Shown one piece after another: positions 27,301 to 30,300 of a DNA stretch of 64,000 bases. Where the stretch lies: assembly GCF_041248615.1 (NCBI RefSeq), contig NZ_CP158426.1, one strand, 5' to 3'. Every line of letters begins with the position of its first letter. Within the stretch, counting starts at the first letter, position 1. This DNA comes from Escherichia coli. GTDB lineage: Bacteria > Pseudomonadota > Gammaproteobacteria > Enterobacterales > Enterobacteriaceae. Made by a program: the position numbers.

Positions 27301-30300
27301 ACCGCGTTCCACGGGGATTCCACACCGGCACCATGGCTATACCCCACCCCGAGATGCCCGCTTAACGAACTGCTGAATGAGGCTTTAATACCTGCCTGGT
27401 ATATTCCACGCCTGCCCGACAAATCATTGACGAAATTACCGTCATTATTCACCTTCACCCGGTTATCATCGACAAATTCTTTGCGCACAGCCGCCTTCAG
27501 CCACGGCTCAATTTCCATACCGTTCCCCAGACGCATGTTGTAACTCAGCGTTGCGCCCAGTTCACGATATATACTGCGGGTATCGACTGATTTCGATTCC
27601 ATGCCATTGGATAAATGATATTCGGGGTTATCAGCGGTGAACCCCGTTAACGATGCATACGGCGTCAGGTTCCAGTTACCATCGGTAAATCGCATCCCGG
27701 TTTCAATGTGACCACCCAGCCCGTTGCTGCGATAACTGCCGTTGGCGGCTCCACCGCTGCTCATTTTACCGGCTACGTTACTTTCAAAGCGGTTCAGCTT
27801 CACGATACCGTCCAGATAGAAACCACTTTCATGTTCCCAGCTGGCATAGCCCCCCAGAGAATAACTGCCCACACTGCCATGCCCTCCACGATCAAAACCG
27901 ATATGTGAATGGGAATAACCCATAAAAGCGCCCAGCGTCGCAATCCCCTCAGGAATATCATTACGGCTATCGATCCCCACCGTCATTCCGGTCAGCGTCT
28001 GCTCAAACCCGGCACCCGCATCGGTGGTGACATTATTACGGGTGTTATACGTCGTCCCCCAGAGATTATTGTTGTGTGGACTCGCTTTCATTATGTTCAA
28101 CCGCTCGCGAATACTGTTTAGCTCAGCATCAAAGACCAACGGTAATGTTGCTGCCATATTGAGTACGGCAGCCGTAGAAGGCGTGATGCGTTTCTCTGGA
28201 ACGGGTGTCGGCGTTGGCTCGGGAGTCGGGTCTGGATTTGGATTTGGATTTGGGTTCGGATTTGGGTTCGGATTTGGGTTCGGATTTGGGTTCGGATTTG
28301 GGTTCGGGTTCGGGTTCGGGTTCGGGTTCGGATTTGGATTTGGATTTGGGTTGACATTATTAGTCAGGTTCCAGTTGCTGTTGCCGTCGCTTTTCAGGAC
28401 ATACTCATAGGTCCCAAGATCAACGAAACCGCCGGTATTGCCCAGCGTAAACGACGCATCCCCTCCCCCTGTTTTCACCAGCGTCATCGCATCGTCAGAC
28501 TGAGGGCTGACGCCGGTATCCTGAACAAAGATTTTAAAATTACCAGTGGCGTTGTTGTTGACGATCAGTTGATCGCCCCGGGAGCCTGCAACGTTGGTAT
28601 GCAGGTAGAAATTACCGCTGCCGGAAAGTTCACTGGTGGTCAGCGTATTGTAGATATCGTTAGTTGTGGCAGGCGCTGATAAATAAACATCACCGTCGTT
28701 GAGTAGCAAACTGTTTACTCTATATTCGCAGTTGCTGGTGCCTGCACAGGAATTATTGCTGTTAAGCCAGACACTGCCCCGGCTGGCAGCCGTCAGGTCG
28801 GCAAGCGTCGTATCGACACCATTTCCCAGAGTTAATGTCGCGCTATCGGTAATCCGGACCGCCCCTTCAAGTTTTACTGGCGTAACATTATCCCGTGGCG
28901 TCATTAACGACAGGCTTCCTGTCGCGCCACTGACCGATGCATTCGCCAACGTACCTGCGTAGACGATTGCCGTCCCACCAGAGACCTGTAGATCTTCTGC
29001 CCGGGCCAGAGCCTGAAACTCATCTTTTGACCGCCCAAGGGTATATTGCCCACCAGAGTTAACCTTTGTGGCGGAGTCCTGACCCAGGTTTTGCATTGCA
29101 CCACCCTTGTCAACCGTGGAGTCACGGGCTTCGGTACCTGCTAATACCAATAAATTACCGCCATTTTCCAGCAACATATTGGTCGCTAAATTGCTGGCAA
29201 TGGAAAAGGTGCCGTACTGGTGCGTACCGCTGATTTCAATACCGTTAGCCGTGCTCGTCTGGAGAGCGGCACCGCTGTTCTGGACGATATCTGTCGCTTT
29301 GCCATTATCGTTGACTGTCAGCGTTCCGCCTTCATTGATCGTTGTTTTTATTGCCTCTCCGTTAGCTGAAACTGTTTGTATTCCGCCGTCGTTAATTGTT
29401 GTCTCATTTGCCACACCCTCGACGATTTGTTCACCGCCAGTGAGCGTCGTGCCTGTCGCAGTGGCTTTTGTTTTGACGATCTCCCGACCGCCCGCATTAA
29501 CCTGTGTTTTGGCGGAAGTGGTGTCTGACTCCACGGTTAACACGCCGCCATTTGTCAGCAGGATATTGTTCGCCGCACCCTGCTCGATGCTGAACGCGAC
29601 GCCATCAGCGCGTGTCCCTGTGACCCGCGTCGCCCTGGTGGTTGCAACCAACGCGCCCTGACTACTCTGCTGTATCCCCGTTGCGCTGCCTTTCTCCCGC
29701 ACATCGAGTATGCCGCCATTGTTAAGTCTGGTGGTATATGCTACGGCCTCCTCGTGGACAATCAGCTTACCGCCAGCATCAACGATGGTATCTACCGCCG
29801 AGGTTTGAGCTACGACCGTCAGTTGGCCGGTATTTTCCAGCACAACATGCTCAGCCCTGCCTCCGGTAATAGTGAAGTGAGATGACCTCTGGTATCCATC
29901 AATATCAGTCCCCGCGCCCGTATTGGCAACTAAAGCGCTCCCCGTGTCCAGGTAAACCCCATGTGCGATACCGCCGGTATCGACAATCAGCGTGCCTCCG
30001 GCGCGAATATTGCTGCCAGTTGCCGTACCTCCTTTCTCAACAACCTGCTTGCTCCCGGAAGAGATATTTGTTGTGTCAGCTTTCCCGCCGCTCTTGATAT
30101 TTTGCGTGCCACTGTTGATATTGGTTCCCGTAGCAATACCATGATTATAAATATTCTGTGTACCGCCATTAATTATGGTATTAGTCGCGTTCCCGGCAAC
30201 ATCCATGGCCCCGCCGTTATCTATTCGGGTCGCATCAGCTTTAGCATTCGTTAAAACTGACATTGTTCCTTTATCGTTAATTATCGTCCCTGTAGAAATT

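Follow-up and report, generated by a model that had tools for sequence, protein, structure and literature searches.

TibA, the self-associating autotransporter of enterotoxigenic Escherichia coli (ETEC), is described as containing "an additional proline-rich domain" at residues 627-677, which separates the junction region from the membrane-embedded domain (PMC3835316). Among the prn alleles of Bordetella, the numbers of GGFGP and PQP repeats vary (PMC3966384). In a stretch of 64,000 nucleotides of E. coli DNA (assembly GCF_041248615.1, contig NZ_CP158426.1; the whole stretch is hereafter referred to as the window), an autotransporter gene flanked by minE and ymgJ carries a hexanucleotide microsatellite that encodes a series of Asn-Pro (NP) dipeptides. 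With a probability of about 0.8, this tract is an in-frame variable-number tandem repeat (VNTR), encoding a proline-alternating spacer between the folded passenger and the helix/barrel anchor of a minE-linked YpjA/EhaD-like autotransporter. The proline-rich domain of TibA resembles the tract in position and approximate length (about 50 aa), the two being compared by description only, and is described in that report without a hexanucleotide VNTR or copy-number polymorphism (PMC3835316).

Region 2 of Bordetella pertactin, (PQP)n, is likewise an allele-variable proline repeat in a homologous passenger. The PQP repeats follow just after the last rung of the beta-helix, which would be the position of the NP tract, and differ from the tract in their 9-nt unit, copy number of about five and far narrower range; pertactin, moreover, undergoes processing and serves as a vaccine antigen, on which immune pressure has been documented. 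Alternating X-Pro tracts thought to be extended spacers are also found in TonB, (EP)n(KP)n, and in trypanosome procyclin, (EP)n, both of which differ in cellular location and partners. Homology to these two proteins was rejected, the matches (NF008084, E 3e-4, 20.7 of the required 315 bits; PF05887, 40.7 of 100 bits) being compositional and below the cut-offs. A match to AcfD was compositional and below its cut-off as well, and homology to the circumsporozoite protein (CSP) was dismissed because the match covered the repeat alone, with no stretch passing on its own. The Ser-Asp R region of Staphylococcus aureus ClfA and ClfB is reportedly a variable in-frame dipeptide stalk, of which a minimum length is said to be needed for display of the binding domain beyond the wall; as a Gram-positive, sortase-anchored and glycosylated Ser-Asp region with an 18-nt unit, it offers a functional analogy only. 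At the level of DNA, the tract resembles the generic E. coli loci for multiple-locus VNTR analysis (MLVA) CVN014, 015, 016 and 017, which are 6-bp VNTRs used for typing and some of which are lineage-restricted. None of the 20 GECM primers (CVN001-017, CCR001; PMC8143711) matched the window with up to three mismatches, and a published generic MLVA locus was thereby ruled out. A literature search gave no paper linking ypjA/EhaD to a VNTR, and none on this tract under autotransporter proline-rich regions. Surface proteins with proline-rich spacers, and with repeats that vary in number, are familiar; the current understanding of autotransporters is unchanged, and the tract represents a genuine, if rather ordinary, surface-protein stalk of variable length.

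Translation of the minus strand gave exactly 20 uninterrupted NP dipeptides, where a preliminary description of the window had reported about 20 in an in-frame hexanucleotide microsatellite; the coordinates given there (28234-28350) fall within 1-2 nt of the true limits listed in Table 1. Tandem Repeats Finder (TRF) identified a period-6 array at 28233-28349 (19.5 copies), called the same array with period 12 at 28234-28352 (9.9 copies, 91% matches, score 182), and found no second period-6 array within the 64-kb window. The 20 units, each of 6 nt and hence divisible by 3 in length, are arranged head to tail, as in an in-frame coding VNTR. Four synonymous units are used, AACCCA (a), AATCCA (b), AATCCG (c) and AACCCG (d), in the order abbcddddacacacacabbb, the longest runs being AACCCG x4, AATCCA x3 and (AACCCA-AATCCG) x4. 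Such an array cannot be due to chance, and the original observation is confirmed. Together with the non-repetitive X-Pro tail DPTPEPTPTPVP, (NP)20 forms an alternating-proline spacer of 52 residues (763-814).

Copy-number variation among genomes was estimated from the span of each match relative to the length of queries taken from inside the coding sequence (CDS); spans reaching over the minE intergenic region were unusable, because intergenic indels of 1-2 nt gave non-multiples of 6. The sample consisted of "best" lists around three seed alleles together with "spread" rows, and is not an even sample of the approximately 407 carriers; as the "best" ranking also orders by gap size, the allele frequencies quoted here do not correspond to population frequencies. 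An E-value limit of 1e-250 failed to separate the minE-linked gene from ypjA, both giving E = 0. In all of the 75 tabulated full-coverage matches, the span was shorter or longer than that of the window by a multiple of 6, between -60 and +42 nt, which corresponds to 10-27 units, in agreement with the earlier proposal that length could change at this tract without a break of the frame. Around the second seed allele (L012), a total of 223 records showed an identity of at least 99%, several carrying the name "405"; among the best 60 of these 223, the span indicated 27 units in 38 records, 28 in 15 and 29 in 7. Short alleles turned up around the third seed allele.

Direct reading of the tract in 21 fetched loci gave pure NP alleles of 8, 10, 16, 17, 18, 19, 20, 21, 22, 23, 24, 26, 27, 28 and 29 units, and one more allele of 26 dipeptides with a single Pro-to-Leu interruption (strain XJ5.2), which is the only non-synonymous change among about 360 units in 18 sequenced pure-NP arrays. 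The differences are concentrated in homogeneous runs. Four alleles (L003-L006) share abcddacaca and continue with b x10, x9, x8 or x7; L009 and L010 differ by b x5 against b x6, L011 and L012 by b x6 against b x8, and L012 and L025 by d x7 against d x8, that is, by one AACCCG. Three pairs of alleles with no mismatch in 2780 nt of flanking sequence differ in count (21/20, 23/24 and 26/28), two O166:H15 isolates differ by one unit, and the six sequences of one haplotype group have six different arrays, requiring at least seven repeat events, against seven private single-nucleotide polymorphisms in the same 2780 nt. Arrays of duplicate or derivative isolates, in contrast to these, were identical (THO-008 sequenced twice; HYM1 and T-HYM1; 2020N21-110 and two derivatives; 2022N21-074 and one derivative). 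An identical repeat count across unrelated strains had been named beforehand as the result that would refute active length variation; the counts vary. These observations altogether indicate a VNTR that differs both between and within lineages, with whole-unit polymorphism that arises faster than substitution in the flank: copy number changes in units of 6 nt, sometimes of 12 nt, mostly where identical units adjoin one another, none of the changes at the tract breaks the reading frame, and the frequency of change is close to that of all point substitutions in the 2.8-kb flank taken together. With at least 15 alleles (8-29 units), this clean, highly polymorphic 6-bp VNTR stands outside the published generic E. 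coli MLVA loci and separates isolates with an identical 2.8-kb flank in the carrier lineages, including the large group with the "405" strains.

The protein that contains the tract is 1120 aa in length, and the preliminary description, which correctly recognized an autotransporter, had given 1121 aa by counting the stop codon. Its CDS is 100% identical to an annotated CDS of E. coli isolate NRZ14408 (NZ_LT599825.1), to which window segments are also 100% identical; the window is E. coli chromosome. The product name assigned by the Prokaryotic Genome Annotation Pipeline (PGAP) is "adhesin-like autotransporter YpjA/EhaD". The open frame extends 43 codons upstream of the PGAP start, to a GTG, and the N-terminus MNRISRYYFHRSVLSLLIAAMIYAPPGMTAF looks by eye like a signal peptide. 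The passenger matches Pfam AIDA (PF16168) in six stretches (E 1e-87), and the barrel matches TIGR01414 of NCBIfam (E 2e-97). The C-terminal 474 residues were modelled by AlphaFold2 (AF2) from an alignment of 18 sequences, with a mean predicted local distance difference test (pLDDT) score of 82 and a predicted template modelling (pTM) score of 0.75. In this model, beta-strands continue to fragment residue 113, the last strand ending four residues upstream of the NP tract; residues 118-168 (protein 764-814) have pLDDT below 50 and no secondary structure; a helix follows at residues 174-206 (pLDDT about 90), and then a barrel of 12 strands (pLDDT about 90), for which Foldseek gave matches to BrkA, Hbp, EspP, AIDA-I and NalP (E 1e-19 to 1e-11). 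By phmmer, fragment residues 2-114 align to residues 422-534 of pertactin (1dab) and the alignment stops just ahead of the tract. The location of the tract between passenger and translocator, as first described, is correct and can thus be given more narrowly: the Pfam Pertactin (autochaperone) domain lies on one side of it, the alpha-helical linker with the beta-barrel on the other. By the AF2 and Pfam boundaries, this proline-rich, low-complexity segment starts from where the beta-helix stops and precedes the pore helix, which places it among spacers of the TibA and pertactin region 2 kind. The combination of a PF03797 barrel and pore helix with an AIDA-repeat passenger and a pertactin-like autochaperone places the protein among type Va autotransporters of the AIDA-I type. 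Its scores for the NCBIfam equivalogs Ag43 (185 of 1200 bits), AIDA-I (158 of 1200), YfaL (33 of 1459) and BafA (278 of 700) were all below the cut-offs. An antisense open reading frame (ORF) of 128 aa with Gly-Phe repeats (28024-28410, plus strand) was rejected as a gene, being a by-product of the repeat without RefSeq annotation; it could mislead gene callers.

Table 1. Features of the minE-linked autotransporter gene and its spacer, in window coordinates
Feature	Position	Strand	Basis and remarks
AIDA-type autotransporter CDS, 1120 aa	27276-30638	-	Classical (type Va); ORF list, annotated CDS match, Pfam, TIGR01414
Beta-helical passenger, AIDA-type repeats	28719-30548	-	Pfam AIDA, TIGR04415 repeats
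Pertactin-like (autochaperone) C-terminal part of passenger, residues 641-759	28362-28718	-	Pfam PF03212, E 1e-45
Hexanucleotide microsatellite, (Asn-Pro)20, residues 763-802	28233-28352	-	TRF, translation
Non-repetitive X-Pro tail, six X-Pro dipeptides, residues 803-814	28197-28232	-	Translation; conserved in ypjA paralogue
Alpha-helical linker, residues 820-852, predicted within barrel pore	28083-28181	-	AF2
12-stranded outer-membrane beta-barrel translocator, residues 857-1120	27279-28070	-	Pfam PF03797, E 6e-46; AF2 strands

By sequence comparison, the gene is a minE-linked paralogue of YpjA/EhaD in spite of its PGAP name. The ypjA locus lies elsewhere, beside ypjF in K-12 and beside ssrA in strain ZF8-1. 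YpjA/EhaD of K-12 and O157:H7 (ssrA/CP4-57 locus) shares with the window gene an equal domain order, a C-terminal 2.2 kb of 91-94% identical DNA, an X-Pro spacer at the identical position and the same ending TPDPTPTPVPEKRITPSTAAVL. The matches from the ypjA locus, however, span only 55-65% of window 28000-30638 (query 1-1727, to about 29727; 91-94% DNA identity), and the first 300 or so passenger residues (window roughly 29730-30638) are paralogue-specific; YpjA has about 1526 aa, another N-terminal passenger and another locus. Orthology to YpjA/EhaD (K-12 b2647) was ruled out on these grounds, namely different locus, partial collinearity and 1120 against about 1526 aa. The PGAP label "ypjA" thus hides a separate minE-linked paralogue that most strains have lost. 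The spacer of YpjA is mixed, KPNPDP(I/N)PNP(KPDP)n...TPDPTPTPVP, without a pure microsatellite, and its span has one length in more than 20 K-12 and related genomes and one length in the five O157 genomes sampled, a uniformity that fits the idea that repeat purity drives instability.

A proline-rich segment is present at the same site in homologues from E. albertii, Citrobacter, Salmonella, Klebsiella, Erwinia and metagenomes, located between the conserved motifs GTYEY..W.L and ITPSTAAVLNMA, the latter belonging to the alpha-helical linker and kept in homologues. These segments differ widely in length and composition, and YejO has no spacer at this site. To judge from these homologues, the spacer is a general, length-tolerant feature of this autotransporter clade; among those compared, the pure NP microsatellite was seen only at the minE locus of E. 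coli.

Of 5426 complete E. coli genomes, 407-423 have the gene essentially full-length, and a single haplotype group of closely related members accounts for over half of these carriers; the gene is missing or decayed in about 92% of the genomes. Most of the other genomes, including BL21(DE3), keep only minE and about the last 345 nt of the barrel, as seen by matches to window 26911-27620; this remnant beside minE is presumably what is named ycgI in K-12. Decay is frequent among the carriers as well: the gene has an internal stop in O17_K12a and a frameshift in K_EC180. In O157:H7 strain 2149 (L013, NZ_CP017436.1), the NP tract is interrupted after eight units by an IS1203 element (IS3 family; locus 233-1560, equivalent to window ~28030-28305). 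The other end of the element abuts gene nucleotide ~2610; what followed in the tract has been lost together with the X-Pro tail and the pore helix, leaving a pseudogene.

Single-unit steps in pure runs are the signature of replication slippage, by which the unit changes would be generated, 6-nt loops presumably being poorly seen by mismatch repair. From the comparison with the flank, the mutability of the tract would be about that of 2-3 kb of ordinary sequence taken as a whole, some 1e3-1e4 times the mutability of a single site; the per-site mutation rate of E. coli is near 2e-10 per generation.

Several points weigh against the interpretation of the tract as a slipping VNTR that encodes a stalk. 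The resulting rate for the tract, about 1e-7 to 1e-6 per generation, is an estimate from six sequences. The window allele is fairly interrupted and may be less mutable than the alleles with AATCCA x10. Some differences between arrays, such as the "ca" inserted within the b-run of L008-L010, need larger duplications or recombination, and the mixed spacer of two carriers (see below) suggests that gene conversion between the paralogues also shapes the region. Low pLDDT means only that no confident fold is predicted, so that the extended geometry of the stalk would be one possibility, and the adhesin function of the passenger is suggested by its homology.

Recombination would be the main source of the length changes if they arose by unequal homologous exchange or by gene conversion with the ypjA paralogue. 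Most carrier genomes do have the two paralogous places, and in MB53 (L014) and PapRG-06-5 (L024), whose genes match the window gene over essentially the whole query and of which the MB53 copy was confirmed beside ymgJ, a ypjA-type mixed spacer, KPNPDP(NP)n(KPDP)n, replaces pure (NP)n in the region equivalent to window 28197-28352. Because most changes are steps of one unit within pure runs, in haplotypes that otherwise agree over 2.8 kb, and the ypjA tract lacks a long NP run that could be transferred, we regard recombination as the principal source as quite improbable. That the differences are errors of sequencing or assembly is extremely unlikely: repeats of about 120 nt are prone to mis-assembly from short reads, but the differences are exact multiples of 6 throughout, individual alleles are each shared by 8-38 independent complete genomes, and where one strain was assembled twice the results agree. 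Tandem repeats in adhesin genes of Neisseria and Haemophilus often phase-switch, and the tract could by analogy be supposed to turn the adhesin on and off. We give this almost no credence, since the unit is 6 nt, every change observed (the 75 tabulated differences and all the sequenced alleles) preserves the frame, and gene inactivations arise elsewhere in the gene or via IS insertion; all changes being in frame, the class of contingency (phase-variation) loci, in which repeat changes switch expression through the frame or the promoter spacing, was rejected. The estimated rate would also be far below that of classical contingency loci, as expected of a polymorphic marker rather than a rapid switch. 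The identity of duplicate and derivative isolates fits this rate, and argues for variation on an evolutionary timescale without an on/off switch.

If the X-Pro tract forms an extended stalk, with up to about 0.3 nm per residue, the 52 residues would reach up to about 16 nm and each unit would add about 0.6 nm, so that alleles of 8 and 29 units would differ by roughly 13 nm in the greatest height above the barrel that the passenger could attain. This is comparable to the O-antigen and capsule layers reported to shield short adhesins. Tract length could influence projection of the passenger, or its proteolytic release, as the preliminary description had proposed, and the alleles constitute a natural allelic series for testing stalk length against display, shielding by lipopolysaccharide (LPS) or capsule, and secretion efficiency.

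It may be asked whether the microsatellite acts as a "tuning knob", stalk length being selected so that the passenger clears the O-antigen or capsule. The wide range of 8-29 units and the changes recurring within haplotypes speak for such adaptive tuning, synonymous unit variants with a single non-synonymous change hint at constraint at the protein level, and short adhesins such as Ag43 and AIDA-I are reportedly shielded by the capsule and by O-antigen. We nevertheless hold it unlikely, because the gene is a remnant in about 92% of genomes and is interrupted by an IS, a frameshift or an internal stop in others, pointing to weak selection on the whole gene, and YejO works without a spacer. A stricter form, a "molecular ruler" in which copy number co-evolves with the O-antigen or capsule thickness of the lineage and keeps the adhesive beta-helix just exposed or just hidden, is decidedly doubtful; if true, slippage would provide heritable and reversible tuning of adhesin reach with the binding domain untouched. 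Antibody pressure would instead drive the length if the exposed repeat were an immunodominant decoy subject to antigenic variation. The topology is like that of the C-terminal repeats of pertactin, to which the passenger aligns as described, prn repeat number varies among alleles (PMC3966384), and phmmer matched the CSP repeats of Plasmodium, whose NANP repeats are cited as an analogue; but the matches to CSP, TonB and procyclin are compositional and under the family cut-offs, and a change in copy number of an identical dipeptide leaves the epitope unchanged, so that this explanation is very improbable. For the length-variable spacer that we prefer, frequent loss of the gene, the spacer-free YejO and the free composition of the spacer among homologues argue against strong selection; the spacer probably tolerates length change, the variation being mostly neutral or weakly selected.

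A second intact autotransporter of 882 aa is encoded 1.2 kb away (31983-34631, minus strand; PGAP "ECIAI39_1904 family autotransporter adhesin"). The spacer ahead of its helix, SSAPTVAPTPVLRPEAG, is a short proline-rich segment without repeats, and the gene has an internal stop in O157:H7 strain 2149. In-frame repeats are also present in a CDS between cvrA and dadX (8302-9738, plus strand; 478-aa "hypothetical protein", WP_001306829.1), namely a degenerate 12-nt (36-nt) array of about 11 copies at 8627-8761 and a 9-nt x4 array, GAAGCTGGA, at 9468-9503, and in the prophage tail-tip gene gpJ (52307-56215, minus strand), in which 174 nt (58 codons) are tandemly duplicated in frame at 53229-53554 (1.9 copies, 90% match). 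Insertion elements in the window include an IS3-family element between umuD and hlyE (19357-20585) and IS1414 (47935-49143), by which sitD is split into two pseudogene halves.

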